From assembly GCA_002633005.1 (NCBI GenBank), contig NMRA01000588.1:1-64000 (forward strand): 64,000 bases of DNA, in the 5' to 3' direction. The notes below the pieces were generated by a model that saw only the letters and a program-made list of their open reading frames with translations, ran no database searches and had not been told where the DNA came from. Below, piece after piece: positions 9,000-34,304 of this stretch. This DNA is from Phoronis australis. Its lineage: Eukaryota > Animalia > Phoronida. Both the position numbers and the translations under genes were made by a program. Numbering within the stretch: position 1 is the first letter of the stretch; each line of letters opens with the position of its first letter.

Positions 9000-9033
9000 T
9001 ATAAATACGACCTCGGCAGTGTGCAATCACTTT
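9000..9033 (+). promoter_or_regulatory. Core promoter of micropeptide gene A: TATA box and initiator
   Basis: TATAAATA at 9000-9007. Inr-like TCACTTT has its A at 9029, 29 nt downstream. The context (ATTTTTTGCTATAAATACG) and spacing are identical in the paralogue at 18090/18119. Confidence 0.7.
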
Positions 9034-9101
9034 TAATCCGGATAGCTGTTCAACAATTTCTGGAAAGGTACTATCAAACAGTAACAGAGTAGAGGCACTA
9101 G
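9029..9101 (+). other. Non-coding exon 1 of micropeptide gene A
   Basis: Runs from the Inr to the donor AG|GTAAGG at 9102. Contains no ATG. Homologous to 18119-18172. Confidence 0.55.
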
Positions 9102-10713
9102 GTAAGGCGTGTACATCTCTATATGTGTACTGACATATCAAATGAATTATCCTTAAGGAAAGGGAATTTTTGTGCGATTTTTGTTTTGTTGTAATATTAT
9201 TTCTAACATTGACAGGGTGTTAACGTCTGTAAATGCAAATTAAAAGCTTCAAAATAAACAGACTATGTTTCTAAGTATGTAGCTCAAATACAAAAATATG
9301 TAGTTTAGCATTTTGCGTAATTGATTACAAAATGCTTTTTTATGTTTTTCCGTGTTTTATTAAAATTCGTATTTTTACCACCGAAACCAAAGCTAATTTT
9401 TCACTCGGTAGCATAGCATATTCAGATTTCTTCGAAAAGTAGTCGCCTGCTTAGACCGAATTGTTTTGATCGGATTTAGTCTTAGTCGCATTGTAGGAAT
9501 TTTTCGCCGTATCGGTGTATTTTGCGAACTTGCAACAAAACAACTAGTAGAGGCAGCACAAAACTCAAAATCATCGCATTCATTTGTAACTTAGTCTAAG
9601 TTTGACGTTGACTGACTATGCGCAGTGTACGTACCCCCCAAGCTGTTCCATTTTTTACTGTTTACAAGTTGAACACTGGGACTCACATTGCTTTAACTAT
9701 TTTGACCAACTCGTGAATGTGTTGAAAACTAAGCAAATAGCACCAATAAAGTTTTTGAAAAAAGTAGTTACCTGTCATTTTCTTTTTGTAAGAATCATAT
9801 TGCAAGAGAAGAAGTTCTCATTACATGGTGTTAAGACATGAAATGTATCATCATCTAGAACAACTTGATCAGCATGGTAATAACTTTTATTTTAGTATGT
9901 GATACTTCTTCAATTTAATCAAAAACTTATTAAATTAACAGCTACCTTATGAATTTTTGCATGGTAGAAGTGGGTTGTGACCACAAGTTGTAGTGTACGT
10001 ACCCTTTTATGCAACTGTGATGCATTAGGCCATAAAATTTTATTTGGTGGTTTTTGTGCAAAAATATTTTAGATTACAAACCTGGAATGATGGTACTTTA
10101 AAATAACCCAGGTTTTACAGTTATATGACAGCCTTTATTTTTCATCAAAAGTGGCCACAGAATATGGACATTGATTGTGATTTGCCCGTATGTTTTGATA
10201 TCCTCTCACGCAAAAGGTGAAACTTTTAAGAACAAAAATGAAGCACTTTGGAAAACAGCGCATGAGGTGTGGTGCCTGAAAGTTTCATATAAATCCGATC
10301 AGCCATTCTTTGTATATGATACTCCACAGTTTGCCAAATTTGGTCATTTTGCGAGGGCCCATAAGCTCAAATCGAGGCCTACGGTCGACCACTAAGTAAA
10401 CAAAGTCATGGTAATACCACAATGTCACATCACTAAATGCTGGTTTTACTGTACATGTACACTAAGCAAGTTTTTAGTGGTTGCACAACATTGTCAGATT
10501 TCTTCAAAAAATCCTAAACTTTCCAAGGGCGTTGAAACGAAACTGACAAAGAACAAGAGAAAAACTCCGAATTGAACTGATTGGTCACGTTTTGTACCAT
10601 GCATGTAATGTGCTTTGAAACTGAAAGTATGTCAACGTTCACTCTGAATTAACATGTAACATCCGAGATTAAGATAGCAAATATGGACACCTATATACGT
10701 GTATGGTTTCAGA

Positions 10714-10829
10714 ATGAGTTCCAACCAACGGTCAAAGGGTTCTTACGGCGGCACCGGTGACAAAGCCGACCTGGGTAACCATTCCAACCAATGCAACCCT
10801 AACCACGGCCAATATCAAGGTCATCAAAG
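10714..10829 (+). CDS. Micropeptide gene A coding exon 1: MSSNQRSKGSYGGTGDKADLGNHSNQCNPNHGQYQGHQ(S)
   Basis: Acceptor TTTCAG ends at 10712, ATG at 10714, and a consensus donor AAG|GTGAGT at 10830 (phase 2). The paralogue at 25677 differs largely by synonymous changes in the motif. Confidence 0.8.
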
Positions 10830-11344
10830 GTGAGTCGATTGTCTATAGATGTCTTTAACTTTACTGAATCAATTATAGACGTGCAGCAGAGTCATGTAGT
10901 TCACGACACTACTTTTTTCATTTAACTTGAACCAGTATTACGGAAAGTGACTTCATTAGGCTTAAACTCTTCAAGTTCTTGGCAGCACGATTGCCTCGCA
11001 AACACTTCATTTTTATGAAAGTTGTTTACTCGCCCTCCAGACTCGTCGTTTTCTTTTAAAGAAAGTCTTGGTCAAAACCCGCAAAACTATATGTTTTAAT
11101 GTCAAAAACTCTCTTCCAAAGTATCGTCATCGCGTTTTTATCTTTGGTTAAAACGAAACGCTTGTGTTGGTCATATCGCTTCGGCGACTGAAAGCAACTC
11201 ACTGTGTAATTAGCTAATTGTATCAATATATTCGATTTTGACCATAACATGAGTATAAAACTGACGATCAAGGTTTTATAAAATTCCGTCTTTACGACCA
11301 GTACCCGACGTTTCACAAGTTCCACTGAGCCGAGAGCATGTTAG

Positions 11345-12150
11345 TAGCTGGATGCCATAGGATGACGACATTCAATTGAGTTGGGGTTTGTGTTTTAAGA
11401 TTGAAGCTGAAGAATTTTTAGATCTTGCTAACAAATTGCACAAAAACATTCGGATCACTAGAGAAGACGAATGTGATTATCAGCTCCATTTTCTGGACGT
11501 ATTGGTTGCCTGACATGGAAATGGTGAAATGGTAATTACTAGTATTAAAACCTACGTTCACAGGCAGGTTTATACATTCGCTGGGACAGTTTCGTCCCCA
11601 AACAGAACAAAAGAAACCTCGTTAAGAATTAACGGTATAAGGCTTATAACATTTGTCCTAGTCAACACAGTTCATCTGCAGAATTATGGTTTATTAAGAC
11701 TACATAAGTATCCAATAGCCAATTCAGTGCCGGATAACTTGACCTTTAATAACAATAATACCGCCATTCTCGGACCAGACAAAAAGAAAGTTTTTTTTTC
11801 TATCTACCTTATAAAGTTCAAAGTTCGCGAGAGTATTGGGCCAAGTAGCTCCTGCTGTGGGTTGTTCTGTTGTTATTTTTACTATCAATAATACGTAGCC
11901 TCAGGTCTCTCAATAGATCCAAACAATTCCAGACACCGACACAAAGCGATCTAAAGTTGTGTATTGTTTGACCAACTGTATTGAATGTAACGCATACTAT
12001 ATTGGCTTGACTTGTCGGGATTTAATGAACAATTCTGTTAACAGCCATGTGATAGATACCGGTCACGAGATGGATTTTGACAGCATTAGAATTTTAGATA
12101 ACGATGCTTGTCTCAAGTAATGACACACTATCAGTTCTTCAGAAACTAAG
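11345..12150 (+). mobile_element. Degenerate Penelope-like retroelement (RT plus GIY-YIG endonuclease relic) in intron 2 of gene A
   Basis: Fragmentary translations FLDLANKLHKNIRITREDECDYQLHFLDVLV, GLYIRWDSFVP, SKVVYCLTNCIECNAYYIGLTCR and SVNSHVIDTGHEMDFDSIRILD match the Penelope RT C-terminus and GIY-YIG motifs in the expected order, with frameshifts. Confidence 0.75.
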
Positions 12151-12312
12151 ATAGGAATCAGATGAGACCGATTTAATGACGGTAAGTAGGCCTATGTGAA
12201 ATGAAGATATTGTTTTGGCAGAAGACGCGATTTTGTTGCACTGTACATAATCAGCAATTGACACTAAATAACGACTCATTGTTATGAACGACTCAACATA
12301 TTGTGTTTTCAG

Positions 12313-12409
12313 TGGTTACCAAGGTACGGGCACCAAGGCGGACTTGTCGAACCACAGTAACCAAATGAACCCCAACAACCCGCGCCACGACCCACAGTGG
12401 AAGAAGTAG
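12313..12409 (+). CDS. Micropeptide gene A coding exon 2: GYQGTGTKADLSNHSNQMNPNNPRHDPQWKK*
   Basis: Acceptor TTGTGTTTTCAG ends at 12312. Phase matches the 10829 donor (AG+T = Ser), giving a 70-aa two-repeat peptide. TAG at 12407-12409. Confidence 0.8.
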
Positions 12410-12801
12410 GGCACAGTCAAGGAGATTTGAAAAATGGCACCCAACATGGAAATGGGTGTGAAATGAGAAACGCTACATTATTCATAGAAAAAGATGCTGA
12501 AAATCCTTAAAGCTGCGTGTCCTTACACTCTCTAACAGTAATCGCGAAAATTTAAAAGGGGTCATTCCCCGAAAAGATTCGTGATTACTGTTAGGAATAC
12601 GTGGACATGTGGCTTTCAAGATTTGTGTACCTGGAACAATGATCACGATTTGGTTCAATGTATAAAACTTAAATATAGTTAATATTAAATTTAGCAACCA
12701 ATTCGCCAAACCCGGTTTCAGCACTAAAACATTCGAAGATCTGCATACTGAAAATCTTAACAAATATGTTTTGTCGTGACTGAATTGAACATTGGCTCGG
12801 A

Positions 12802-12807
12802 AATAAA
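12802..12807 (+). terminator. Candidate polyadenylation signal of gene A
   Basis: AATAAA lies within a 3' block conserved with the paralogue (31812-31817). Confidence 0.5.
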
Positions 12808-13937
12808 CCATAAACCTCTGTCAATTGTTTCTTTAAAATTTGCCTCATGCAAACGAAAAGACTCGTTCATTATTTCGCATATGCGTTATTATGTACATGT
12901 ACATGTTTTAGCATGCCATTTACAGACACTTCTTATTTGGTTGAACGAAATTTGTACTACGGTATAAGTCCATGAAAAATATCACATTCTGGCTTACAAT
13001 CGCAACAATTTCAAATTTTCAGTACTTTTCCATACCTCAAAATTATCAGAAAGTGAAATGTTTACTTGAACAGCCGGATTCAAGCTGCTACAAGATTTCT
13101 GACCCACGTGCAATCTGAGCGGAAAGACTAACCAACATATATTCTCAGTGACATGGATTTGTGTCTTTTCTTTCAACACATTATCTTTAAGCATACATCA
13201 CAAACTATTTCATCTTTATGTATGTTGTATTGTCTTTAAGCTAATAGTTTAGTTGATCTTCATGTTCCTCAAAAATCCAAAACACGACATTATACTAATG
13301 GGATTAGTATATATGTTAGTTTTGATTGAACTCTTATGCTGCGTCTTGAACACAAAATATGTGTTGAAAGGAGAATAGTTGTCTTATTGGAAGTCAGTAT
13401 CCACGTCCCCGTTGCGTAAAAAGTTTTGCACGAGAGGGCAACAATGACATCGCATTATTGCGCCTCACGTTCATATTGTTGAGAAATACAGATGTCGTCA
13501 TGCAAAAATCAAAATCATGCAGTAGCAAATTTTTTAAAGCTTTTGTAACACCATAGACAAATTCCAAATTTGAATAAATTCGGAATCATATCTCATAAAT
13601 GGCTGATTGGATTCATTCGAAACTTTCATACACTACGCTTTACACACTGTTCACGAATACTCTGTCAGGAGTTGTTTTATAATGTTCTACTTTGTATGGG
13701 AGGTTATCAAAAATAGGACTTTCACGATTTTCATGAAAAAAATAAATTGCATAAAACGATCATTTTGCATTTGTTCCCTTTTCGAGGTAGTACAACACGA
13801 GAATAGTTCATAAAGATATCTTTGTTCATGAAAGTAACAACCCGTGATGAGGCAGGTGCAGCTCACCGTGTCTGGCAGAATGTGTTTCTAGCGCTAACTA
13901 CTATACAGGAAATATTATTGAATATGGAATCGGTCAC

Positions 13938-15656
13938 ATGTCCAGTTCTCAAAAGCAAGGCGTAATTACGTTAATCCCGAAAAGTAAGAAGTCCGAGGAA
14001 TTACTATCTTTAGATAATTGGAGACCTATCTCTCTTTTGAACTGTGACTATAAATTAATAACTAAAACAATCGCAAACAAAATATACAAATATATTGACA
14101 ATTTAATTCATCCAGATCAAACATCCCTGCCGAAACGTTATATAGGCCAGAATATACGTGTAGTTGACGATATGATTGAATTTTATAAAGAAAAGCACAC
14201 CCCCGGTCACATTGTATTCCTCGATTTCAAGAAAGCGTACGATACTGTAAAGTGGGAGTTTTTATTTCAATCCTTAAAAGCTTTCAATTTTGGTGACGTT
14301 TTTATCAATAGAATCCGTACATTGTATTCTGGAATTTCGTCATGTGTGATGAACAACGGATTTACATCACAGTATTTTAACATAGAGAAAGGCCTCCGAC
14401 AAGGAGACCCACTATCAAGTCCGCTGTTCGTCCTGTGTGCGGAAATTATGTCACATCATATCAGAAGCAATGAATTAATTAGAGGCTTCACAATAGCCAA
14501 TCACGAAATCAAAATTGCACAGTATGCAGATGATACAGTTCTTTTCATTAAAGACTTAGAATCTGGAAATAACTGTTTTAAATTTTTAGATTATTTTGGA
14601 ACATTATCTGGACTCCACTTGAATTATGAAAAATGCCAAGGGATGTTTGCCTCAACAATGCACCGAAATCGTAAACCACTTTACGGAATCAGCTGGCCCC
14701 AAAAGCCCATTAAAAGTCTAGGAATATTCTTTGGCGGAAGAGGGGATGACGCTGAAAAACTCAATTTTGATGATAAAATCCAAAAGCTTAAAGACCTGTT
14801 TAATATTTGGAAAATACGAAATTTGTCCATAAAAGGCAGAATCTTCCTTACGAAAACTTATGGTTTATCGAAACTCATTCATGTAGTGTCAACTGTGGGT
14901 ATCTCCAAAAAAAGAATTCGTGAAGTTAATAAACTTATCAGAGAATTTGTTTGGTTAAATAAACCTCCAAAAATTAAAGAAACTGTGACTATTTTACCAT
15001 ATCAAGAGGGTGGTTTGAAATATCCTAACATGGAACTGATCAAGTTAAACTTATTATTTAATTGGGTCAAGCGCTTTAATACAGAGGATGAGGCAAGTTG
15101 GAAGATATACCCGAGGCATCTTTTCAGTCGTATTGGCGGTGTCCTCATTTTTTCATCCAATTTTGAACTGAAAACCCTAAAATGCGAAATTAAGAACCCT
15201 TTTTACAAAGATGTTCTCTCAACCTTAGATATTCTTAATCCTGAAATATTTAATGAAGTACCAATAGCCAAACAAGTGATATGGAACAATTGTAACTTAA
15301 CTGTTAACGGTAAATCATTATTTTACCAAGATCTGTACAATGCAGGCCTCATATTTTGTGAAGATTTTTTAGATAGCCAGAACAAACTTCTTAAATGGGA
15401 AAGCATTAAGAAAAATTATAACTTAAAGGATACGTCTATCATACCATTTTATTCCACCACAACGACCTTGAAGAAAGTTCTGGGTCCGTCGGATAGAAGG
15501 ATTGTTAGTTGTAATAACATTAGATTTTTATTCTTCAATAGTTCCACTCCATGGATCAAAAACACATTTATTCACAAGTTTTCTGTAAAACCAGATAATT
15601 ATGCGTTTTTACTCAACTACTACATTTATTTATTTATTTATTATTGTGATATTTAA
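13938..15656 (+). CDS. LINE ORF2 reverse transcriptase (truncated, 572 aa)
   Basis: Motifs NWRPISLLNCDYK, FLDFKKAYDTV, KGLRQGDPLS, QYADDT, LSIKGRI and EGGL. The ORF ends inside an inserted repeat. Confidence 0.9.
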   Translation: MSSSQKQGVITLIPKSKKSEELLSLDNWRPISLLNCDYKLITKTIANKIYKYIDNLIHPDQTSLPKRYIGQNIRVVDDMIEFYKEKHTPGHIVFLDFKKAYDTVKWEFLFQSLKAFNFGDVFINRIRTLYSGISSCVMNNGFTSQYFNIEKGLRQGDPLSSPLFVLCAEIMSHHIRSNELIRGFTIANHEIKIAQYADDTVLFIKDLESGNNCFKFLDYFGTLSGLHLNYEKCQGMFASTMHRNRKPLYGISWPQKPIKSLGIFFGGRGDDAEKLNFDDKIQKLKDLFNIWKIRNLSIKGRIFLTKTYGLSKLIHVVSTVGISKKRIREVNKLIREFVWLNKPPKIKETVTILPYQEGGLKYPNMELIKLNLLFNWVKRFNTEDEASWKIYPRHLFSRIGGVLIFSSNFELKTLKCEIKNPFYKDVLSTLDILNPEIFNEVPIAKQVIWNNCNLTVNGKSLFYQDLYNAGLIFCEDFLDSQNKLLKWESIKKNYNLKDTSIIPFYSTTTTLKKVLGPSDRRIVSCNNIRFLFFNSSTPWIKNTFIHKFSVKPDNYAFLLNYYIYLFIYYCDI

Positions 15657-15830
15657 AATGAGGGTGGCCTCTTCAGTGACAGCACTGCTTTCCAAGAGGG
15701 CCCTCAACAAGAAAAACAGTAATATAATACAATGAAGTAATAAAACAACAATGAAATATACGTAACAAAGATACAATTAAAACAGTTAAGGTTGAGAATT
15801 AAGACAATAACTAAATGACAAATAATGGTA
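15624..15830 (-). mobile_element. 3' tail of an L2/CR1-type LINE or SINE inserted antisense into the L1/Tx1 ORF
   Basis: (TTTA)n at 15624-15640 is a (TAAA)n tail on the minus strand. It sits next to a GAGGGTGGCCTCTT...AAGAGGGCCCTC stem-loop-like segment typical of such 3' ends. It separates the RT from the zinc knuckle. Confidence 0.55.
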
Positions 15831-16668
15831 AAAAAACGCCGAAATTAAAGAAATATATAATCTCCCTTTTAATCTACCCATAAACCCTCATTTGTCAATG
15901 TTTAAATACTTTTTCAGTCACAAAAGAATTTATACAAACAAAATGTTAAAAAATATTTGGTATTTCACAAACAGACCAATGTCCCTACTGTGGCGAAGTC
16001 CAGACCTTTCAGCATACATGTATGTTTTACAGTTGCGTCTGTGTTAAACGTTTCTGGAATTCTTTACATCATTTCATAAGTAAAGTTTTTAATTTACACA
16101 CTGAGCCATCTATGTACCACTTCTTAGTTTGCTTCCTTGGCAATCTAAGTGAAATCTTCAATACCATATACACTCATGCCCAACATTATATTTATACATC
16201 ATCGAGAGATAGGTCTCAANNNNNNNNNNNNNNNNNNNNNNNNNNNNNNNNNNNNNNNNNNNNNNNNNNNNNNNNNNNNNNNNNNNNNNNNNNNNNNNNN
16301 NNNNNNNNNNNNNNNNNNNNNNNNNNNNNNNNNNNNNNNNNNNNNNNNNNNNNNNNNNNNNNNNNNNNNNNNNNNNNNNNNNNNNNNNNNNNNNNNNNNN
16401 NNNNNNNNNNNNNNNNNNNNNNNNNNNNNNNNNNNNNNNNNNNNNNNNNNNNNNNNNNNNNNNNNNNNNNNNNNNNNNNNNNNNNNNNNNNNNNNNNNNN
16501 NNNNNNNNNNNNNNNNNNNNNNNNNNNNNNNNNNNNNNNNNNNNNNNNNNNNNNNNNNNNNNNNNNNNNNNNNNNNNNNNNNNNNNNNNNNNNNNNNNNN
16601 NNNNNNNNNNNNNNNNNNNNNNNNNNNNNNNNNNNNNNNNNNNNNNNNNNNNNNNNNNNNNNNNNNNN

Positions 16669-17479
16669 GGGGGGGGTTGCTCAGATCCAATTTCAAGTGT
16701 CAAATTCGGAACGCGGCTTATTCGTAACAGAAGTATGGCTAAGTATAGGCTCTCCCGCGATATCCCAGGCGACCGGCAGTGGCGCTGCGCATTACGACTC
16801 CGTTTCCGTCGTCTGCTCCACTGTGCAATGAAGAAAATTTACTTCATTTTTTAAAGAAAATGGAACCTGAGTTACGATGAAAAAACAGAAGCTGCTGGTA
16901 AGTTGTGAATTTTAATCGAAATCTTAGTGAATCACTCAGAAACTCATAATTCTCTCTTTGTCAAACTGACTTAAGACGATTTCCTAAGCAAACCGTCATT
17001 ATTGCCAACACGAAAAACGGATTTGGTCTTTTGGGCATTTGAAGACTATTTTAAATACAACAAATTTGTTAAGAACCAATTGCACAAAATATAAAACGTG
17101 TAATAAGCATTACAAAAAGAAGTAGGTTTCGCGCGCGAACGCTGTGGACCATAAACAAGTAGGTCTCCTAGTATGAGATTAGCAGATAAGTGTTGTAGTG
17201 ATAACGCATGCGCGCGCTACCTGCCAGGTTGTGAGTTCGAGTCTCTGCTGCATGCAGTTTTTCTTGTTTGATACGTTGGATAATACTTCAGGAATCAAGG
17301 AAAATGCTTGATTTTTGGAGGAAAAAACAGAAAAATTTCCTTGGCGTGAGGGGGGCAAACCCCTCCCTCCCGACCTCCCCCCATTCGGTGCTATGCGCAC
17401 CTACAATCGTGGTTTGCGCAAATGCTTACAGCCGGACAAAATATTGGGCCCCCCTTGTGATATCCTAGATCCGCCACTG
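16669..17479 (-). mobile_element. Family A DNA transposon, copy 2 (inverted)
   Basis: Ends CCTAGATCCGCCACTG at 17479. Reverse-complement match to 5757-6350 and 21332-21931. Confidence 0.8.
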
Positions 17480-17841
17480 CTTTGTGACCCTTTCGTACTA
17501 GGACTGGTGATCATATAACGATAAAATTACGATTAATCGCAGGATTTATAAGTAGTTAAGTTTCATGAACTTCACACAATATATACGCTATATTACTCAC
17601 AGGCGTAGGACATTTTTTCGGTCGCTTAGATCTCGATCTGACGAGTAAACGATTCTTCGTAAGACTATCATTGAAGCTGTAAATTGGATTTGCACCCGGG
17701 AGTCGAATTGCGATAAACAGACAATTAGTTTTCATTCTCACACCCATGCAGTTCGATATTTGCCAGCACCATCTGCAGAGATACGAATAATTAGGATCAT
17801 CAATGATAATTGCGAATCATCATTTCGTAGAAATAACTGCA

Positions 17842-18123
17842 TGAGTCATGGAAAATTCGATCTCTCTGGCTGTTGGGAATTTTCCAAGGTGATCGACAAT
17901 AACTGATCACAATAACTGAATACGTTGTGCCTCCCACTCAAGTCACAAATGCTTGCAGATGCATATAGCAACACGAAGTGTACAGTGTATTGGCACAGGT
18001 TAGGAAATACCCATAATTCCGGTCCACGATCATACGATACTGAAAACAAACGATATTTCGGAATTTCCAGTTGCCCGGTCATTTTTTGCTATAAATACGC
18101 CTTCAGCAGAGTACAGTCACTTT
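17842..18123 (+). promoter_or_regulatory. Promoter of micropeptide gene B: AP-1 site, three kB-like sites, TATA, Inr
   Basis: TGAGTCA 17842-17848; GGGAATTTTCC 17875-17885; GGAAATACCC 18003-18012; CGGAATTTCC 18059-18068; TATAAATA 18090-18097; Inr TCACTTT with A at 18119. Confidence 0.65.
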
Positions 18124-18172
18124 TTTGTCCCGATTTCAGTTGTACTACGTCTGGAAACGTTTCACCGAACAG
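18119..18172 (+). other. Non-coding exon 1 of micropeptide gene B
   Basis: Runs from the Inr to a strong donor CAG|GTAAGG at 18173. Contains no ATG. Confidence 0.6.
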
Positions 18173-19155
18173 GTAAGGTCACTTTTATGCCAGATACACA
18201 AAGGTAAATCTCTTATAGGGTTAATTTTACTTTGTAACATTACTTTTAACTTCAATAAATGTTGATTAAACTAAAAAAACGTTAGAATAATCTTAATCTG
18301 CAGGTCAGATATTCTGTGTAGCTCTACTATAAAAACACGTGGTTTAGCATTTAATGTAATTATTAAAAATGAAATGTTTTCTTATTTCGTCTGTTTTGTA
18401 AAAATTCATAGTATTTCCACCGAAACGAAGGCAAGATTTTCAGTGTTACTTTTGCCGATAGCAGAGCATTTTCCGATTTCTTCGAAAAAATTGCCTACCG
18501 ATTGCTTAGACGACCGGCATGAATTTGTCATTTACACTGGACAGACGCTTGAATCGACTCATTATCCAGCCAGTCCAAACACCTCGTTTCCATACCACAT
18601 ATTCAGGTGAAGATAACTGAGCGCCGACTGATTTCCATATCAGACAAGCAGCGTAAAACCAGTTACGGTGAACCGATTTTTACGATTCGAACACCGATTG
18701 CGGTTACATTTTATGTTGTACGTATTTCTGGAATCAGTCGTTCTTAAAATGCAGTTTATACTGTAGGCAGAGTTGTTTACTACTGTTTTATCCGCAACGC
18801 TCCATGAACTTCAGCTCAGTGATGCACATCTTCTGAAGCTACTCACATTCACCTAGCGTTTACTTGGATGCCGTTAGCTACTTGGTATGAACCACAGGCG
18901 TCCCTAGCTCCCGATCGTCCCAATACACTATGTGTGACACTCGGGACCAGGAATTCCACGGGTTTTTCGCTTCAGCCGTCCATATTATCAAACACAAATC
19001 TTAATAAATTTACACAAAATAGGGATTCAACAAACCATGACCAATAGTTCGTTCTTCTGACAGTAGCAATTGCAGCGTCCTGCTCCACCGAGTTCGTAAC
19101 AAATTCGCGATCAAAACACAAAAATCTTCCCAAAAGGCTGATGCCGGCATAGGAA

Positions 19156-19754
19156 CTCGCTAGTTCCCTTTATGTGCCTAGCCAGCACGCAGGTATCACG
19201 CAGTGGCACGCACTTTAGCATTGGTTGATGCAACCTCAGCATGCAGTCATTGGTTAGCTTTACAACACTGTGAAAAAATGGCGGACTGTGAGCGATTTTT
19301 AGCCTTGTCATGCAAGTGGCGTCGCCGCAGCAACTATTTCGTTTCTGCAGTGATATTTATTAGCCGCGTGCTTGAAGCACATACATGTACATGTACAATA
19401 AACTCATATCTGGCCGATTTAAACGGTGTGCTGTTCATACTGTATGAATACAGGACAGTATCGTAAACAAAAGTCATCGACAGTAGAAAGATGCACTCCG
19501 AAAAGGCGCAAACACAATTTCTAGGATTCACATTTCCTGCACATGAATTTTAAGCACCGATTTGTCTGTACAAAAGACCACATTTACACTTCAGTCCATC
19601 AGTCATGCCAGTTTGTTTGCGTAAAGCGCTGCCTGTTGAGAATTCGACTACCCAATCAGAAACGCTGGTGTAAAATAAATTCCCGACTAGGAAAATTAAG
19701 TGATACCTGAGTTCTGGCTACCGACCTCCTAGCGGCACGCAGGGAACCAGCGAG
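19156..19754. mobile_element. Mutator-like MITE
   Basis: Imperfect TIRs of about 45 bp (CTCGCTAGTTCCCT...CAGGTATCAC / GTGATACCTG...AGGGAACCAGCGAG). Perfect 9-bp TSD GCATAGGAA at 19147-19155 and 19755-19763. Confidence 0.8.
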
Positions 19755-21003: not shown

Positions 21004-21270
21004 ATGCCGCTATATTGCGGTGCATCGGTTACCGCTTGTCCGAACTATGCAGCTGCGAAGAAAGCGGGTATATCGTTTTTTGAACTTCCTTGGGAGCTCG
21101 AAATGCTTAGGAAGTGGCTCGCGGTAGTGAACAGTGAAAGGTACGCTGTTAATAGTAAGTATGATGGCATGAGGCCGTGAAACATCTCCGTGTCTGTGGC
21201 CGGCATTTCGTCGACAGTGATTTCTCTGACGAATTCCGGCTTACCAAAGAACTATCCATATGTTCCGTTG
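21004..21270 (+). pseudogene. THAP zinc-finger relic (transposase N-terminus)
   Basis: MPLYCGASVTACPNY...GISFFELPWELEMLRKWLAVV..., then a frameshift/stop near 21180, then KHLRVCGRHFVDSDF. This is the C2CH THAP signature. Confidence 0.75.
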
Positions 21271-21331
21271 CCTATGCATGTTCACGGGGCCTCTTTAGTA
21301 TTTCTTGATTAGTGTATTCCGGTTCGAACTG

Positions 21332-21931
21332 CAGTGGCGGATCTAGGATATCACAAGGGGGGGNGAACAATTGTAGATGCGCATAGCACCGAATGGGGGG
21401 AGGTCGGGAGGGGGGTTTGCCCGCCCAGGAATTTTTTCTGTTTTTACCTCTAAAAATCAAACATTTTCCTTGATTCCTGAAGTATTATTCAAGAAAAAAA
21501 AAGGCAAAATAAAAAAACAAGAACGTGTCAAACAGGAAAAAAACTAGTAGTAGTACCAAAGACTCGAACTCACGACCTGGCGGTTAGCGCGCGCGTGCGT
21601 TACCATTACACCACCGCGACTTACCTTCTAATCCCTTACTAAAAGACCTACTTGTTTATGGTCCACAGCGTTTGCGCGCGAAACCTACTTCTTTTTGTAA
21701 TGCTTATTACACGTTTTATATTTTGTGCCATCAATTCTTAAAAAGTTTGTCGTATTTGAAATAGTCTTCAAATGCCCAAAAGACCAAATCCATTTTTCGT
21801 GTTGGCAATAATAACGGGATTGCTTTGGAAATCGTCTTAAGATAAGGTTTGTCAAAGAGAGTATTGCGAGTTTCTGAGTGATTCACTAAGGCTTCGATTA
21901 AAATTCACATCTTACCAGCAGCTTCTGTTTT
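21332..21931 (+). mobile_element. Family A DNA transposon, copy 3, nested in the Kolobok-like element
   Basis: Same CAGTGGCGGATCTAGGATATCACAAGGGGG start and body as 5757-6350. Runs into an N-gap. Confidence 0.8.
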
Positions 21932-23835: not shown

Positions 23836-24409
23836 AGGAATGATTTTTGACGGGTAACCCGGGGAACATGGGAGATGGGACATTCATAAGGTGTATTTGG
23901 GCTCATTTCCGAGGTACCTATAACGGTTCACGAGTTTAACTTGAACTCCAAAAATAAAGGCTGAAATATTAGTTTTTTATTGCGAGTATTCTGAGTACCC
24001 CCGTTCCCGTTCGACATGTATACGGTCATCACAAATCGTAGCCCCAGTCTTTTCGACATTTGCGAATTCATTACAAACAGTTCCTAGAAACGGCTTTCAA
24101 AAGAAATACTATTCTTGTGATACTATTGGAAAAAAATAACATTATTTATAACTAAACATCGAAAGTAGCCTTTTTGTGTAATTCACAAATAGTGATCTTC
24201 ACGTTCTTCTAAATTCCAACTTTTTGATAGTGGTCAATTCTATTGTATTTTTCACATTTTTGGTTGTTTGGGTCGAATGTTTTGAAATTGTTGCACGATT
24301 GTTTTGTGTTTTTGATGAATTTGGAATCTCAGCTTCCCTCGTGAATACTTTGCACTGTCGGATTTATATGTATAGAGGGATACCCGAACCGCCCCACTGA
24401 GAGGGGTTC

Positions 24410-24590
24410 CCGTCTGAAATGGGACACCTAATATGAAAGGCTACAAATCATTAAGCTTGGAAAAGAGTGACATTTCATTCCATTGTAGGGTGACCTTGCT
24501 AGAAGTGACTTTCCTCAGCATGAAAGCCGGCTGTACGATTTCACAAAAACAGGAAAATAGAGATAATCGATTCCAACATTGGGCCCTCTC
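24410..24590 (+). repeat. Dispersed repeat, second copy at about 43820-43990
   Basis: Shared TGACATTTCA.TCCAT...GGTGACC...TACGATTTCACAAAAACAGGAAA. Confidence 0.6.
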
Positions 24591-25676
24591 TTCGTGAGCT
24601 GCCCCTTAAGAATTTTCCAATTGGAACACGAAAAGGGTGGCCACTTGAATGTCATCAATGGTCCTCTTCAAGAACTGGGCCTCTAAATATGAAAAGATCT
24701 ATATTTTCAAAAATCAGGAAACGCGCAGCCATTGATGTTACCCGCCAGGCCATCAATTTTCTCAAGTGATACACAATTTAGAGAAAGAAAAACACGAAAA
24801 AATAGAGTGACAGTTGTCTTTGTTATCCTTTGCTAGAGCAGGGCCTCTGGAAAATATAATTTTGCATTTGTGCATTGGCAAAACTGTCTTATTGAATTTA
24901 AAAATGCCGTGAATTAATATGCTCCGCAAAAGCTTCGCTTTACGAATTTTCTCGATTTTTTGAAATACAAGTGCGTTTAGACGATCTACATGTACGCAGC
25001 AAAAACGGAGACCCTAACAACATTATGCTGGCCAGGGCCCTCAAAGGGTAAACCATGCATTGATACTGAGTTTTCAAATGTTCTCTTGAATTTTCTCTCT
25101 TATCGGTACTCGTAGTCTTTCTTTTCTCGACTGTCCCCGGCCTCAAGTCTTTGCCGGTTGCTATGGTTTAGCCCTGACGCCTGAAAATTTTTGCCCCCCC
25201 CCCGCTTCCTATGGCCCTGCTGAGTAAGACACAGTCCATGTGTTGCCGTACGTGGAGGCACTGGCTTGGTATGGGAGAAGCTATATGTTCTTGACTGAAC
25301 AGCGGCTGAAGCTGAAAGAAGAGTTAGAACTTACTACAGACTACTCTACCATTTCTAGACGCTGAGCCCACAACTTGTGGTCAAAACACCAACACACCCG
25401 GTTTGTTATGAACTATGCAATTTTTAGTGATTGCACTACATATATAATGAGATTTCTTCAAAAAATCCTAAACTTTACAAAGGTTATGAAACAAAAATTA
25501 CAACAAAAGAAAATATTCAACTCCGAATCGAGCTGATTGATTACCCCCGGCGTTTTGTAATGTACCTTGAAATCGGCAAGAAAATGTGGAAGTATGTTAA
25601 CATTAAGTATGATCATGCATGGCACGAGTGAATGACTGCGGAAGCCAACATACATGTACTATGGTTCAATTTCAGA

Positions 25677-25805
25677 ATGAGCTCACCCAAACAAGTGATA
25701 ACAGGCGGCGGAAAATACCGCGGCAAAGGTGATAAAGCCGATCTGGACAACCATGCTAACCAGTGTAACCCTAACAACAGCGAATACAAAGGGCACAAAA
25801 CTTAA
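25677..25805 (+). CDS. Micropeptide gene B coding exon 1: MSSPKQVITGGGKYRGKGDKADLDNHANQCNPNNSEYKGHKT* (42 aa)
   Basis: Acceptor TTTCAG ends at 25675, ATG at 25677. TAA at 25803-25805 is followed immediately by the donor GTGAGT. Paralogous to 10714-10829. Confidence 0.8.
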   Translation: MSSPKQVITGGGKYRGKGDKADLDNHANQCNPNNSEYKGHKT

Positions 25806-25820
25806 GTGAGTCGTTTAGTA

Positions 25821-28047
25821 TAGACCCAATTCACGCGGCGGACATTAAAATCCAAAGCGAGGCTCACTGCGATAAACAAAGCGGAAATTTACATTGCGTG
25901 AGTTAAATGGCCGGTCTTTGGAGTCCAACCTGAATATTAAATCTTAAAAAAATGTGTCAATAATTAACCACAGAGACGTAGAAAAATACAGTGCACCAAA
26001 GAGTTGTCTGACGAAAGGATATAAGTTTTTTTCCGGAAAACTAGATTCGAAACATGAAAAGTAAACATGACCAAATTGCGGCGATCGTAGTGTTACGGAA
26101 TAGGTATCATGCTGAATGCAGGGTTACGTTTCTTCTAATAAATTCTTGATAAAAATGCTTTCTACATGAGCCAGGTCATCTGGTCGTATTGTTGACGAGT
26201 TGAAGATATATTCGACAGTGGTGGCTCATAGCATTTTGCTGTCAGGTGCAATTAGTCACATCTGGTTTAATTTGTTGATCAAGAGTAGGCCTATTAGCTT
26301 CAAGCATAGCCTAGGTCCTGGTGAGGTAGGCACTACCGGGACTAACAGTTGATTTGTCATTGTTCTGAAATAATACTTGATGTTATTAAATATATATTTT
26401 GATAACGATAAAAAATCAGGCTCGCAATTGAAAATGAAAATTATATGACCATGAATTCTGCGTTCTTGGTTTTAATAATTACGTCTATTTCATGTGTTAT
26501 ATTTTTCAAATATCAATCTCGACCAAGTTGAATTTTAAAATTAAAACACCTTATTCCCTTCGTCCAAAGCATAACCTCGTTTTAGAGCTCAATTTCAGTT
26601 AACTGGACAGAACACAGTGGCGGATTTAAAGGGGAGCCAAGGAGACCATGCCCCCCTAAAATTCGCCCAGATTCCATTTGGCAGTTCAGGAGCGCGAATA
26701 TCTGAGGGGAAAAATCCTGGTTAATAATCTGCCTTGCTCCCCCCCACAACTCAGAGTCCTGGATCCCCCTGGAACAAGCATAGTTATCATGTTTCTTCAG
26801 AGGTCTCGTTCTTATCCGAGGGGAAAGGTGCCTGTGCGGCCTTTTGAGAGGGGAACGTTTCGCCGAGTGACGGGTCAGTGAAAAATCTACTGACCTCCCG
26901 ATCACCAGCAACAGCATACCGCCTTGTTTCAAGCTCTCATAATAGCTCTGTCTCAAGTAGCATTTTCAGTGGCTGATCTAGGATACCATGAGGGGGGGCG
27001 ACATCCTCGGAGAAGCGGGCAAAGCGCGATTGTAGTGTACGCAGGCGGCCCGGAAGTTGCGGGAGCCGAGGATGTATGCCTTCTGCTAAGGAAATCTGTC
27101 ATTGGACAAAAAACGAAACGTGTTTTCCCCCTCGTCCGCTACCGGTCCTAGCTCGAACTCAGTATAGTCAGGCAGTCATAACGCTAAATCGTCGTGAGAG
27201 ACCGTCCGGAGTTGGTACATGGTGCAACTCCGGACGGTCTGGGCTCAACACTGAGAAATCCACAGTTCTACTGTGAGTCTACAGAACGAGAGTAGTTCTA
27301 CTTGCCGCGTTAGCTGCAGGTATCATTATCGTTTTTATGACACAAAATGTGTAATTGGGCAAAGACTTTTCAACTTAACGTATATAAACCAGTGGAGCGT
27401 GAGATCCCTGAGGTCCCTTTCAAGTCCTCACGACAATCATTCTATGGTCCTCGAGTGACGTTTTGCTGTTTTTTTTGTTGTTTGCGGCAGTCAAGGGGGG
27501 GGGGGGGGCNTACTTTTCAAATTGTCACCTATGTGGCACAGGTGATTTGAACCGTTGGAGAGAAATTTTCAATCACTAAGGGAATTTTTAGGCCTCGTGG
27601 GAGCGGGAATTTCGATTGATTTTTCAATATTTTTGAGAGGGGATAGGGCCGATATTTGGCCCCAAAATTGAGGGATTGAAGGCCGTGTCCTTTTTGTAAA
27701 GAAAAATGCATCACGCTTTAACCCATAGTCATGAAAACACAGCCTGGCTGGCCGAAGATTCTTCGGTTCTCGTTTCTATGGCGGCAACCGAGATGCAACA
27801 AATCAGTATGATTCGAAAACAGTTATAAATTTTACACGGACATATTTTCCTTCGTCGCGGCGTATGTCAAGGACCCAACGCTTCCGAATCCTAACGTCCT
27901 TAGGGATTGTAAAACAGACAGTTGAGTGTCCGTATTTTTTCTAGCTGTTCGAGCAACGCGGAGTACAACTACGCGGATAAGCCACCAGAGCGCATCGTAG
28001 CGAGCCTCGTTTTCGAACGCGCCTCCTGTCGGCGTGAATAGGGTCTA
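25821..28047. mobile_element. Non-autonomous TIR element with TAG...CTA termini (possibly Academ-like), in intron 2 of gene B
   Basis: TA|TAGACCCAATTCACGC ... GCGTGAATAGGGTCTA|TA. Homology to gene A intron 2 stops before it and resumes directly after it. Confidence 0.7.
26615..26771. mobile_element. Short CAGTGGCGG-type MITE with 5-bp TSD
   Basis: CAGTGGCGGATTT...GGATCCCCCTG flanked by GAACA/GAACA. A sister copy lies at 35255-35399. Confidence 0.75.
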
Positions 28048-31000
28048 TATTGCTTTTACTGAGTGCTCTACAGACGTTCAGCTGAGTCACGTATTTCTTG
28101 AATGTACTACTTCAAGGATGAATCAACGTTCAAAACCACGTGACTTGCCTGGACTGCAAAGAGACCGGCCACGTGCCCGGACTTCAAAACCACTGGGAGC
28201 CTGCTGGACTGCAAAACCGAATGGCCCGTGTTCTAACATGGTGGTCAAACCTCAAAACGGGTTGGCTGGTACCTCAAAACCGTAGTGTCAGCACCCAAAA
28301 AGCTGGTTGGTAGGACTTAAAACAAGTACATAAATACGCCCCCGGCTACGGTGTGTTGTGCCCAGCCAACTAGTTTTTTGGATGAGGCCATTGCGTGTTG
28401 GAGTCCGCCGGGACTACACGTTATCTATCTATAGTCACCGGCCATTTGTTTTGCTGTACAGCCGACTGGTTTTAANTTTTATTTTATGAAATGAAAGTAA
28501 CATGTTTTGTCAACATTTTGGCTAAGTTTCATTCTCATAACAGTGGGGGCAGATTTGGTACAGCAGTGTATTGAACACAACCTCAAAATGGCATAACGGG
28601 GGGGAGTGTAGTAAAATCACTAAATGATGGTGGTAAATCGGAATCGTGTTTCAAGACATCTGTGTAACAATCTACAGGCACCACTAAACAATGCCCAGTG
28701 AATAATAAATCAATAGCTTTCATTCAAGGAAAAATATGAACAGTTAAAACTGGACAGTTTTTATACCGTGAAAACATGGCTGCGAAGCCGTAAAATGTGT
28801 TTGAGCCTATAACTTTAGAAAAACGCAATATTTTGAGGAAATATTTTACCGCTGTTTATAGATTCCATAGGACTACCTATGTGCCAAATTTGGTGAAAAT
28901 CGGCTGACCCCCACCTTGCCGCTCATGGCTGGTGCTCTCGTGGACTAGTACTTAAAGTCCGACAATTGTTGATGCCCCTCTCACGGTACTTTCAGAGCTA
29001 CTATTTTAACTTTTTACTGAAACTGGCTTCATTAGGCTAACCCTTACTTAACAGACCGATTGCCTTACACGTTCATGTAACTCTAAGTTTCATCATAGAA
29101 TATAGTAGACTCGAAGGACTTTCCGCCAATGCCAATGGATAAACTCTGTGATAGTACGCACAAGCCGAGACGTCACTATATTCAGCGGGCGGCACCTGTA
29201 CCCTCTGACACAGCGTCACCTATACTGAAAAATGGCACTGTGGAAACATGATGACCAACACACGGAATTCCGTGTGGGCATCAGTGCGCATGCTTAGGTC
29301 AAAAGTATACCGATCACATCGCCACCACTTGGACACGCCGTTATGCACTGCGCCCTGCTTGGGCTTAAGCCACTGGATCGGAGTCCTTGATTGTTTACTT
29401 CGACCACTGCCCGTTTTAATAAATAACAACTATTCAGGTCAGAGGTGGTCGCCGTATTTGGAAACAGTAAACTGAAAGGGCTTTTCCAGATTTCAACTAA
29501 TGGGAATGACTGAATGTCGGTCTCATTACTTTAACCAATGAGAAGCCATGTTAAACAACATACGACAGTGCTACCTTGAATCGATTTTTACAAAGACAAA
29601 CGGGGACAAACAGCATAAAGTGTTGTATACATTTATGAGAGAGGAATACAAAAACAACCTTTGTATACTATTTTTTCTCCAAAAATAGAGTTTCTCCACG
29701 AATCTTGATACTGTAGAATTTCCTCTTGATCTACGTATTTTACTTGAGAATTTATGCCGGAAATCCAATAGCTTGAGCATCAGTATTATCCAAATTTAAA
29801 GTAATCCAGTGATTTTTAAATGTTTAGCAAGGGAGGTTTCATCAATTGTCAGCACTACTTTTCAAGAGGACCTGGGCTACAGTACCTCAGAGTGTACAGA
29901 TGCTTGAAATAGCAGCATCATCATATGCAATAATTTATATTCATTATCAATGATGACGTATATTTACCATTGGCAAAACACAGCCTCCAAATCAACATTA
30001 CAGGATGCCATTTATGTAGACGTTTCCCTACAATGCGCTTTTCTATAAAATGGACCTGTCTGTAGTAAACTATGGTATTCATAATATGCTACGCGCAGTG
30101 GGACTGAATTTCATACAGAGTAAAATTCGGGACTTCCAAAACACATGATCTGAGTTGACATCTCACACAAATATCAAAATTATGAAAATGCCACTCAAAT
30201 TGAAAAGTATTCCATTGAAAAATAGCACCCCTGTCAGCGACAAGTCCCCACAACCGCCATCAAATAATTTGCTATCTCCCAGGGTATATTTTCCCTACGG
30301 CCGAGTTTTTTCGTTATTGTGGATTGTGAATGAGTTTCTATAGTTTTAGCTACTTTGACCGGAGAAAGGATTTTTCGAAAATCGTGATCTTCGCTTTCGT
30401 GAATTTTTAGCTCTTATAACGATGTGAAATGTCCACAAATCGACAACTATATGCAGGGTAAACCAGAGATGGTAATGTTTTAAAAGAAGCTTGCGTTTGT
30501 CTATAAATTGTTTTGCCATTTCATTGGTTTTTGTTATTACTGTTTATTTTTTTGTTCTTTTCTTTTAATGGCTCAGACGTTGATGACTTTCGATTTTTAA
30601 AATTTCCACGATAACCCAAACGGCAATTTTAGCTCACAAAATACGAGCTGGTACTCGCCAAATCGGACCCTGGAATATTTAACGACAGAATTAAGTAGGC
30701 CTAGTATTCTGCCCAAAGCATGCTCTGAAACATGCATCCTCGAAATGGCAGGAAAAAATAAACGCAGTCTTCCTTTAAAAAATCAATCTTTCCTACTTAT
30801 GCATGTGACTAACTGGTGTTCTCAAAGTTGACTGTGGTGTCTGTGGACAGTGTGAAAGCATAAACCTTTGTATTTCGTCTGTGTGGCCGAGCAACCGACA
30901 ACACAACAGACGACGTACTTGCCGGAAGTAAGACATCGTAACTTAGCGGGTGCCGCTAGTGAATAGTGACGTCACAGATTGTGCGTAAGGTCACAGATTT

Positions 31001-31167
31001 TGTCCTTGAAAATATACGGAGTTAGCGGTCTATGTACTATAGTCTATACCCATGAAACATATGTTCCAATATCAAAAACTGTTTTTCGTTGGTATATCGC
31101 TCTACTAAAGCATAACCATCGCGTTTTTATCCTTGGTCATCAAAGACTAAAAATATTGTGTTTTCAG

Positions 31168-31273
31168 GGGTTACCAAGGTAAAGGTACCGACGAGGACTT
31201 AGCGAACCACGCTAACCAATTGAACCCCAATAACCCACGCTTTAAACCCCGAGGGAAAAAAGAAGACAAGTAG
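31168..31273 (+). CDS. Micropeptide gene B second repeat exon: GYQGKGTDEDLANHANQLNPNNPRFKPRGKKEDK* (frame link to upstream exon broken by 1 nt as assembled)
   Basis: Acceptor ATATTGTGTTTTCAG is identical to gene A. The frame is open and the motif conserved with synonymous changes (TTG/TTA, AAC/AAT, CCG/CCA, GGC/GGT). TAG at 31271-31273. Confidence 0.65.
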
Positions 31274-31811
31274 CTTTGAAGAAAAGGCACCCGACGACAT
31301 GGAAATGGGTCTGAAATTAATAACAAGACATTAACGTGTGCTTTTGAGAAATGATGTGCTTGTACACCGTAAAACTGTCGATGTCGTCGTGCAACAATGA
31401 TTTTCAAAACTGCTGGGTTTGGTGATAATGACGGCTAAAACTTACATTAAACAGAATCTTATGGATTTTCTACATCTGAAGGATTCTTTAATAAAGATGC
31501 AAAAAGTCCTCAAAGCTGCGTGTCCTTAAATTCTCTAACAATAATTGCAAAATATTTAACCGGGGTCTTCGGAAAAATCTGATTCGCGATTACTGTATAG
31601 AGAATGTAAGGACACGTGGTTTTCGAGATTTTTATGCCGGATCAAATTTTACGATTCAGTTCTATGTACAACACGCCAAAAATATGTTAATTTGAAAGTT
31701 AGCTGCCTCATTTGCAAAACTTGGGCCCAGGCAGCTCTAAATTTGAAGAACCGCATACTGAAAATCTTAACAAATATGTTTTGTCATGATTGTATTGAAA
31801 ATTGGCTCTGA

Positions 31812-31817
31812 AATAAA
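31812..31817 (+). terminator. Candidate polyadenylation signal of gene B
   Basis: AATAAA at the position homologous to 12802-12807. Confidence 0.5.
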
Positions 31818-34304
31818 GTATTAAAACTCTGTCATTTGTTTCTTTAAAATTGGCGTCATGCAAACGAAAGACTCGCTAAGCATTTCGCAAATTTATTGTT
31901 TTTATTAGTACGCTAATTACATACATTAAAATGGTACATGCGAGCTTTTTACCAGGCCATCACATTTTGTGCCATTTCTTAGTTGGCTGAACGTTGTTGC
32001 ATGTCAATGAAAAATATTGCATACAAGTTTACAATCATAAAAGTTTTCAGTACTTTTCCAGATATCAAAATTATCAGAAAGTGATTTTTTTAAATACAGT
32101 TATCATAAATATGTAACATTACAGTGTACTGAACAATGAACACATAGTACATACACGCACGCACTCACTTAATGGTCGTTTAATTTTCATTAACATGAGC
32201 AAGTTTTAACCATCTATTTCTAAATTCATCAAACTGTCTTTTTTCAAAAAATGTATTTCTCACAAAAGCATTAATAGATGGTAAAGCGCCCCCCCAATCT
32301 TTGACTGTATATGTGATATTTTTCTAGAACCAAACTTAATTTTGTGGATGAACATTTGTTACTAATTCCAAAACAACATTAGCGCTCATTAATGTTTCAT
32401 CGCTATCACAGAAGTAATATTTGAAAATGCGTGTAAAAATATGCTGTAATTTTTATTTGAATCTATCGGTTTTTAGGTTTTGGTCAATTATTTCTCTGTT
32501 CATGAAATTAACTCCCCGCAGTGAAGCGGGTTAGAATTAGGCTCACCGTGACAGGCAAAACGTGAGTTTAGCCCTAATTACTACATAGGAAATATTAAAT
32601 TTAGTGTCTCTATTTGACGGATTTGATTAGATATCATTCTATTTTGATATTCTAATATCTATCCAAATCGGCCTACATAATTAAAATGGCCAACTTAGTA
32701 CCAAGACAACGACCGTTTAGGCAACATCGCACGCTTTTGAGATACAGTGTACCGAAGCCGTAAACACCTCATATTTATCTGATAGTAGCGCTACTGGTTC
32801 TAATTATAAAATGACGCCAAAGACTAGCTGCACTTCCTTGCTGTTTTCCTTGGTTGGGAGCTGTCGGGGACTTGCAAAGTGTACTGTCCTGCAGCGACAC
32901 CAACGTACGGTCTGTACCAGACAGAAGAATATGTTATCTTCCACCTAGGTCACGTAAATGTTACTGAGCAAAACCATACCATTGTTGTTTCCAACAGTAT
33001 CCATTCAACAATAACCAACTGACGAGGTTTCCAAGCATTCATAAGGAGGCAAATGAAACATTTTTTTTTTGTTTATTGGCAAATAAGGAGCTGTTTTAAA
33101 ATCACACTACTTTGCAGAAACATGATATCATTTAAAACGTCTTAACGTATGTGCGGAGGTAATCGCATTGGAAGTGAAACTGCGCACTTGCAAACACAAA
33201 ACATTTGCAAGTAAAGTTAAAGTACCAAATTTACTCAAAAGACGTCGCGCGCGCGCCTACATACGAGTAATAGAGCGTCCTCTGTGACCCTTTTGTACAA
33301 TAACGATAAAATTACGATCAATCGTGGGATTTATTAGTAGTCAAGCTTCATGAACTTCCAATAAATATTAAAAACTTCACACTAGACCTGCACTCGAGTT
33401 AGCGTTTAGTTGATCTGCAATGGCCGGTTTGTCGCGTTAAGTCACGATGTCGATTACGCTGTCCGCCCGTAATTAATCGGTAATTTCGTACCGTCCTTGA
33501 CCTCGAACCGTCAAAGTGCCAAGTGTGTTTGGGCTTTTCGGGAACATTTTTGTTATTTGACAGCGAATTTCTTGCGAACTCGTTGGAGCAGGACACCGTG
33601 AATGGTATTATAAGAAAGAACAATTTCTCATGGTTTGTTGAACCCCTGTTTTGTGTAAATTTATTGTGATATGTCTTTGATGTGAACGGCTGAATCGAAG
33701 CACCCGTGGAATTTCTAGTCCCGAGGGTCATACCTTGTTTATATGTGTGTATGGGGACGATCAGAAGCAGAGGACGCCTGTGGGTTAACACTCTTTCGCA
33801 ATGACACTTTTCAATATAGGCGGCGCTGTGTCAGAGAGTACCAATGGCCCTGTTCTACTAAACTTAGGGAAAGAGTACGTTAACCTGAATGGACATAATT
33901 TCACACTTTTATTATTTGTTTTCTGTTGTATACTCGTTTACAATATATTCCATGTAACGTTGAGATACTAGTTTAGTTAACAGACTTTTCAAACTGTTTT
34001 TATTGAAGAAATTACACATTCGTCGGTTCCTCGCCCTTTCCTAAAAAACTTGAATCTGCCATTCACAGAAGAGCAGACGAGACGATTACACTTTGCCGGG
34101 AACGACATTTGTAACGTTGGTAGGTCTTTGATTTGATTTGGTCACGTTGTTTTTTTCTGTTTTTGATTTTCAAACCTGTCGAATCGACTCCCTTTTAAAA
34201 TTGCAAAAAGCAGCGAAAAGCCAACCGAGCACACGCCCCGACTCGTTGCTCCAGCAAGTCAGAGCTTGTTCTATGCTCATATGGAGTCGAGCTTGTGCAG
34301 ACTT

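Follow-up and report, generated by a model that had tools for sequence, protein, structure and literature searches.

The window analysed in this study is a 64,000-nucleotide (nt) stretch of Phoronis australis DNA (contig NMRA01000588.1, positions 1 to 64,000). It carries two tandem loci, designated gene A and gene B, whose short exons encode a repeat with the consensus D-N-[HRK]-[AS]-N-Q-[LMC]-N-P-N-N-x-x-Y. Gene A is a real gene, accompanied by gene B as a likely decaying duplicate, and both belong to a widespread, unnamed microprotein family for which there is no family model.

Gene A and its tandem copy

A preliminary description of this DNA, made from the sequence, had proposed a tandem pair of spliced micropeptide genes with four motif-coding exons. 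All four exons were recovered on the plus strand in a six-frame search, in which the pattern N[HR][AS]NQ.NP matched four times in the window and not once in each of 30 base shuffles. A GT donor and a TTTCAG acceptor were present at all four proposed introns. The promoter layout was also as described, with an initiator-like (Inr-like) TCACTT lying 27 bases after TATAAA in both genes and exon 1 regions that contain no ATG (Table 1).

RNA data were chosen by species label and consisted of three raw-read runs (X1, X2, and X3) and one contig set (X4); X4 was only guessed to be RNA, and its contig depth is a poor expression measure. Approximately 18-19% of each of the three runs was aligned to positions 8910-14000. 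The junction 9101/10713 was crossed by 0, 5, and 30 reads from X1, X2, and X3, respectively, whereas 10829/12313 was crossed by 18, 10, and 37 reads and by one X4 contig. All of these junctions were GT..AG, and the first mate lay on the minus strand in every junction read, which in a standard stranded library marks sense RNA. Because reads from a single strand span both GT-AG junctions, gene A is transcribed and spliced as predicted. Exonic depth dropped to nearly 0 past 12820, behind the AATAAA at 12802. Joined in phase 2, exons 2 and 3 form a 213-nt frame of 70 codons with two repeats, in agreement with the phases and length given in the preliminary description, and selection on the protein suggests that this frame is translated. 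The predicted product has no signal peptide, a polar N-terminus, a grand average of hydropathy (GRAVY) of -1.82, 14% Gly, and a pI of 9.3, as calculated from the sequence, so the earlier picture of a leaderless, hydrophilic, G/N/Q/H-rich peptide was borne out. In addition, a 52-nt piece of the 3' untranslated region (UTR) of gene A, 12634-12685, was missing in 18 X3 reads, two X1 reads, and one X4 contig; the ends of this gap are not GT-AG, and it is therefore likely an allele.

A second class of reads was detected over the gene A coding exons. A linked set of variant letters, scored at 10719, was carried by 11/11 reads in X1, 7/13 in X2, and 10/50 in X3, and these divergent reads (10714-10829 and 12313-12413) were spliced at 10829/12313. 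Their differences from the window, drawn from 40 of 182 rows, fall in 12 codons: the four in motif cores are all silent (one being common to all reads), and five of the eight others change the residue. X4 contigs with the divergent letters had depths of 22,854-50,105, compared with 16.6 for the gene A 3' UTR. Since X1, in which the divergent class dominates, lacked exon 1 junction reads and had little 3' UTR depth, the UTRs of the divergent copy seem to differ from those of gene A. The divergent reads likely stem from a paralogue outside gene A, although they may represent a divergent allele of it.

Gene B differs from this pattern. Its exon 2 measures 129 nt from the ATG, which is 4 nt above the phase-2 length when three extra N-terminal codons are allowed for, and the frame ends in TAA immediately before the GTGAGT donor. 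Spliced at sites homologous to those of gene A, it would yield 42 amino acids (aa) with one repeat, leaving repeat 2 untranslated; two alternative in-frame donors were found, both poor. Sense depth in the exon 1 bin was 0.2 in X3 and 0 in X1 and X2, and that in the bin 31368-31848 was 1.43 in X3 and near 0 in X1 and X2, while depth in the exon 2 and exon 3 bins was confounded by repeats. Repeat-derived joints filled the 15 listed out of 106, and the predicted junctions 18172/25676 and 25805/31168, which may or may not be used, did not appear there. Thus, of the proposed pair, gene A is intact and spliced, whereas gene B is truncated by a stop and barely expressed. Gene B, with its early stop, is likely a decaying tandem copy. 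Its exon 3 is still open, and a recent truncation is the simplest reading; the locus illustrates in simple form how a tandem duplicate loses its second repeat. A functional single-repeat product is possible, since a single copy, as counted with the search pattern used here, is present at 50 of the 78 prokaryote genome loci that have a called frame.

The ratio of nonsynonymous to synonymous changes (dN/dS) between the motif cores of genes A and B was 0.14 in exon 2 and 0.37 in exon 3, based on 21 codons each from cores picked for the motif; the four cross pairs were saturated. These values support the selection at the protein level that had been proposed from silent differences. Promoter, intron, and 3' blocks of the two genes are all 67-74% alike, consistent with the proposed gene duplication. 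The 3' region had been called conserved, with AATAAA; the signal is present in both genes (12802 and 31812), but the conservation is not special, the identity of 72% being the same as that of the intron-1 block. Local exon duplication had been suggested as the source of the two repeats, and here the evidence pointed the other way: a pair with 30-aa spacing is already found in a sponge, a flatworm, a rotifer, molluscs, annelids, and a nematode. Because it is shared across such distant animals, the two-repeat layout is much older than this locus, and the local event was gene duplication. Cys was found in repeat 1 of 10 of the 12 named species and in repeat 2 of none. A repeat-order test using BLOSUM scores did not separate repeats 1 and 2, and the exon-2 repeats were nearer to repeat 2 in 9 of the 12 species, which may reflect partial homogenisation or re-duplication of the repeats.

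Table 1. Positions of gene A, gene B, and other features in the window
Feature	Position	Strand	Details
Gene A core promoter	9000..9032	+	TATAAA at 9000, Inr-like TCACTT at 9027; X3 sense reads extend to ~9048
Gene A exon 1, non-coding	9029..9101	+	Start inferred from Inr; junction 9101/10713 reads
Gene A exon 2	10713..10829	+	ATG at 10714, repeat 1 (Cys form), phase-2 donor
Gene A exon 3	12313..12820 (end approximate)	+	Repeat 2, stop 12407-12409, 3' UTR, AATAAA 12802
Gene B TATA, Inr-like element, and non-coding exon 1	18090..18172	+	TATA 18090, Inr-like 18117; aligned to gene A
Gene B exon 2	25676..25805	+	ATG 25677, repeat 1, TAA directly before donor; 42-aa single-repeat frame
Gene B exon 3	31168..31830 (end approximate)	+	Repeat 2 frame open to 31273, would be behind the stop; AATAAA 31812
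Stem-loop, gene A 3' UTR	12505..12620	+	-55.7 kcal/mol, z -10.6, 0/200 shuffles as stable
Homologous stem-loop, gene B 3' region	31510..31620	+	-43 kcal/mol, z -7.8
Long interspersed nuclear element (LINE)-type reverse transcriptase frame	13851..15656	+	601 codons open, between genes A and B, outside the family; Pfam RVT_1 E 1e-37
Frame with PH domain match	48132-48716	-	Probably exon of neighbouring gene; E 1e-5
Tandem array	36346-36868		~88-bp units
Dispersed ~600-bp repeat	5757-6355, 16868-17479, 21332-21931		Three copies, one inverted

A microprotein family from bacteria to animals

We hold it as practically certain that gene A is real and belongs to an unnamed family extending from bacteria to animals. 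Of 430 candidates, 327 proteins with lengths of 17-74 aa matched a profile built from the four exons, which also gave 410 clusters at 50% identity; an insect-type profile gave 1173 matches among 5894 candidates. A bacterial-type profile, which matches the animal profile at 99.4%, detected at least 377 relatives among 601 stretches of prokaryote genomes, and 80 of them were kept. The preliminary description had mentioned similar DNHANQLNPNN strings in small uncharacterised proteins, and these searches bear this out many times over. Named sources include Geodia, Macrostomum, Rotaria, Didymodactylos, Potamilus, Pinctada, Magallana, Ridgeia, Romanomermis, Ramazzottius, mites, springtails, and many insects, and further relatives occur in dinoflagellates, archaea, and prophages. 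The prokaryote members span Dehalococcoidia, Bacteroidota, Proteobacteria, Firmicutes, Methanolobus, and Poseidoniales. Among viral contigs, 29 of 75 stretches matched the bacterial-type profile; cultured phages gave no family match and plasmids one partial match. Prokaryote and viral members are mostly stand-alone frames of 34-70 aa or tails of membrane-anchored proteins. Magallana gigas K1PVB4, Geodia barretti GBAR_LOCUS12893, Ridgeia piscesae NP493_74g01028, and Tetranychus urticae T1L0S3, which share the two-repeat motif at 52-74 aa without a signal peptide, represent the family itself. One animal-type member (P0028) is labelled Salmonella/Enterobacteriaceae and lies on contigs of at most 818 bases; it is likely contamination.

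Two repeats were found in 105 of the first 120 matches, with a spacing of exactly 30 aa in 87 of these 105. Across 755 motif instances, the composition by position was D 74%, N 95%, H 64%/R 25%/K 5%/Y 4%, A/S, N 81%, Q, L 42%/C 24%/M 24%, N, P, N 93%, N 75%, x, x, Y 74%/F 11%, in which Q, N/D, and P were fixed by the search pattern. Conservation is thus largely polar (N 95%, H/R/K/Y 98%, Y/F 85%, the N that follows being variable), and Pro is near-invariant at the motif centre.

The preliminary description could not assign the peptides to a named family, and this still holds, as no Pfam, NCBIfam, or PHROG model covers the motif. The four exon peptides had no Pfam match at E values up to 10, and nine microproteins had no PHROG match. 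All relatives are named hypothetical or uncharacterised, except for two labelled DNA polymerase beta without a supporting Pfam domain. The commonest Pfam match, Semialdhyde_dhC_1 (40/79 relatives, best E 2e-5), and NCBIfam argC (13/79) were rejected, being regarded as fortuitous similarity to a small part of an enzyme domain that is unrelated. The name PrInh6 was considered for the family and dropped, passages of PMC1925068 giving neither a sequence nor a link. The motif strings and the relatives' accessions retrieved no paper from full-text literature, a search whose scope excludes subscription journals and supplements, which may list genes by locus identifier. The top ESM Atlas scores were 0.88, all for hypothetical clusters, and serve only as leads. 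Few modules as deeply conserved as this one, a protein of 50-70 aa that is conserved from sponge to insects and shares its motif with bacteria, archaea, and phages, are still unnamed.

Possible functions of the repeat

A structure model of the relative P0011 (79 sequences) had a predicted local distance difference test (pLDDT) score of 72, with 72-82 over the repeats, and placed one helix in each repeat, ending at the N-P-N turn; helices at 13-22 and 43-52 are predicted in a close relative. Searches with a 65-aa model gave no Foldseek match and a best Z of 2.5 among 48,161 chains in the VIA fold search, neither of which shows a new fold. Profile A2 had a single match in a PDB sequence search, a nanobody at E 0.73.

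Our leading reading, offered tentatively and at less than even confidence, is that the repeat is a soluble helix-turn mini-module binding a nucleobase, a nucleotide, or RNA. We infer this from the polar conservation, a residue spacing like that of PUF proteins, and fusions to nucleotidyltransferase-like domains. Each repeat would form a short helix closed by the N-P-N turn, on which Asn(i), His/Arg/Lys/Tyr(i+1), and Gln(i+4), together with the Tyr past the turn, would make up a base-reading site. With a spacing of 30 aa, the two repeats would take up two bases or a single ligand containing two, which would make the free microprotein a buffer or adaptor; the fused form would be a ligand-binding accessory of an enzyme. 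In PUF/Pumilio proteins, the tripartite recognition motif places edge residues at i and i+4 of a helix and a stacking residue at i+1 (in FBF-2, i, i+1, and i+4 are residues 363, 364, and 367; PMC6351103), and the present repeat has N, H/R, and Q at these three positions. PUF proteins have an eight-repeat helical scaffold that the 70-aa microprotein does not possess, and the likeness is an analogy only.

The fusions were found among longer matches. Six of the 120 listed (P0196, P0223, P0242, P0247, P0351, and P0486) combine the repeat with a CD-NTase/Pol-beta-like domain that bears the nucleotidyltransferase signature GS..DxD; they are protist-type proteins, the named ones from dinoflagellates, in which three to five motif copies stand in front of a compact CdnE-like nucleotidyltransferase. 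P0196 had a PADLOC cyclase match (E 3e-6), and the best Foldseek match of the P0242 model was CdnE (E 2e-4). In some of these protist proteins, the best matches of the fused domain are CdnE and cyclases of the cyclic-oligonucleotide-based antiphage signalling system (CBASS), a likeness to the CD-NTase/SMODS/eSMODS enzymes (PMC10732462); genes A and B have no such enzyme domain, and the available text of that paper mentions neither the repeat nor dinoflagellates.

Several observations weigh against a base-binding role. The PUF likeness is limited to three helix residues and may have arisen by chance, the large PUF scaffold being absent here; no PUF family occurred among the Pfam matches of 79 members or in the PDB sequence search with profile A2. 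Support for the nucleotidyltransferase domains is weak, with Pfam E values of 0.008-0.026 and a TM-score of 0.26 for the P0242 model against CdnE, and the nucleotidyltransferase identity of P0248 found no match in the libraries scanned (Pfam and PADLOC). Within the nucleotidyltransferase-fusion model, the repeats have pLDDT below 50. Unrelated fusions are equally common, comprising 8/120 springtail-type proteins with a glycine-rich domain as well as PLAC8, Hint, and membrane anchors, and several long matches resemble mis-called extensions of a small gene. Many bacterial members are strongly acidic, a poor fit for RNA binding. At most 14 of the 107 prokaryote and viral loci shared any one neighbour family, and near-identical prophages make up the larger clusters. 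Finally, the conserved residues could merely hold a tiny fold together.

A bolder form of the base-binding reading, which we consider a long shot, is that the NQxNPN repeat would be an unrecognised, three-domain module binding nucleotide second messengers. Cyclic or linear oligonucleotides that act as immune signals would then be buffered by the free microproteins of invertebrates, bacteria, and prophages, while on protist CD-NTase-like enzymes the repeat would act as the sensing arm. Such a module would correspond to the signal sponges of phages but be encoded by cells, and would be common to bacterial and animal immunity. If the repeat does bind nucleotide signals, innate immunity across domains would gain a component.

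The main rival is a hydrophilin-like stress protectant, that is, a mostly disordered, abundant protein shielding proteins and membranes in osmotic, drying, and oxidative stress without a specific ligand, to which we give roughly one chance in four. Hydrophilins are defined by composition, with Gly above 6% and a hydrophilicity index above 1.0 (PMC7448490). With GRAVY as a stand-in for that index, the gene A product has this composition, as do 109 of 120 relatives (GRAVY below -1 and Gly above 6%), in common with LEA-like (late embryogenesis abundant-like) proteins, yeast HSP12, and RMF. Several named matches come from rotifers and springtails and one from a tardigrade, and the X4 contig depth of the divergent copy, a poor measure as stated above, would fit an abundant product. 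However, position-specific conservation across three domains and the fixed 30-aa spacing (87/105) exceed the needs of a bulk protectant, and the family has a strict motif with no Pfam LEA-type match among 79 members. If this reading is right, a widespread stress protein has been overlooked.

It is less probable, and in our view unlikely, that the repeat represents the helix B-turn-helix A junction of tetratricopeptide repeats (TPRs) in a polar, detached form, capping or competing with TPR proteins and so regulating a protein partner. The register A-x-x-L-N-P-N-N-x-x-Y aligns with this junction in PP5 and PEX5. The only two PDB matches of the bacterial-type profile were the PP5 TPR (E 0.7 and 1.0), six of the 12 matches of the fusion profile were the PEX5 TPR (E 0.06-0.5), and weak TPR_17/TPR_11 matches were obtained; moreover, in 4/107 loci the microprotein gene lies upstream of one common family of ~450 aa. 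Every one of these matches is below significance, with TPR_17 reaching E 0.22 in 2/79 and 1/17 members, and D and N stand at positions that are hydrophobic in TPRs. The family also lacks the 34-residue array, the P0011 model contains one helix per repeat, a second helix is not predicted in the animal form, and profile A2 had no TPR match in the PDB.

A metal-binding or redox-sensing role for His, Asp, and the repeat 1 Cys is doubtful. The two-repeat proteins have His in repeat 2 in 99/105 cases and Cys in repeat 1 in 79/105 (8/105 in repeat 2), yet Lys or Arg replaces His in 37/105 first repeats, and Cys swaps with Leu and Met as at a small hydrophobic site and makes up only 9% in prokaryote motifs. 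With His at 64% and Cys at 24% of the 755 instances, the earlier suggestion of a His/Cys/Asp metal-binding peptide was weakened.

The N/Q-rich self-assembling motif also considered in the preliminary description fared worse. HET-s-type prion-forming domains are beta-solenoid repeats without a central Pro, paired with a NOD-like receptor (NLR) and an effector. Two Asn-rich pseudo-repeats 30 aa apart, located terminally to enzyme-like and glycine-rich domains, resemble a signalling amyloid of this kind that activates fused effectors; the near-invariant central Pro, the helical P0011 model, and the absence of NLR-effector pairing among recurring neighbours in the 107 prokaryote and viral loci make it very improbable. 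Least probable of all is a secreted or granule-stored antimicrobial peptide: the product is small with a pI of 9.3, and tandem duplicates are common among immune genes, but its sequence has no signal peptide or hydrophobic face (polar N-terminus, GRAVY -1.82), and the motif is also present in bacteria and archaea, in stand-alone proteins that are often acidic.

The microprotein is short enough for synthesis, which allows cheap ligand, structure, and knock-down tests.

Genomic neighbourhoods and further features of the window

Neighbours of the microprotein genes were scanned with PADLOC at 1e-8. Matches were found for 17/146 neighbours in 15/60 loci, six of the 17 being to generic domains. As 66 of the 212 selected neighbours lay outside the scan, 17 near-duplicate loci were excluded, and no control set was included, defence enrichment is not claimed. 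In five loci (L035, L045, L069, L081, and L095), the first downstream gene lies on the minus strand and encodes one family of ~400-450 aa, converging on the microprotein gene; none of the five had a PHROG match, and the two scanned had no Pfam match at 1e-12. On near-identical prophage-like contigs (L083:2926-3150 and related viral loci), the microprotein gene lies between those for the terminase large subunit and a ParB-methyltransferase. Eight fusion proteins (P0157, P0158, P0167, P0168, P0174, P0175, P0177, and P0179), the named ones from springtails, have a glycine-rich, zipper-like N-terminal domain without a Pfam match, followed by two C-terminal motif copies.

Genes A and B each have a stem-loop of ~115 nt downstream of the stop (Table 1). 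No Rfam match was found over 8900-33000. The two-sequence consensus contains 32 pairs, of which two changed on both sides and five on one side, too few to show selection on the structure. The stem-loop may be a regulatory RNA element, or it may be a decayed inverted-repeat element older than the duplication, which would look alike. The pattern of its 5' arm occurs at only these two places in the window.

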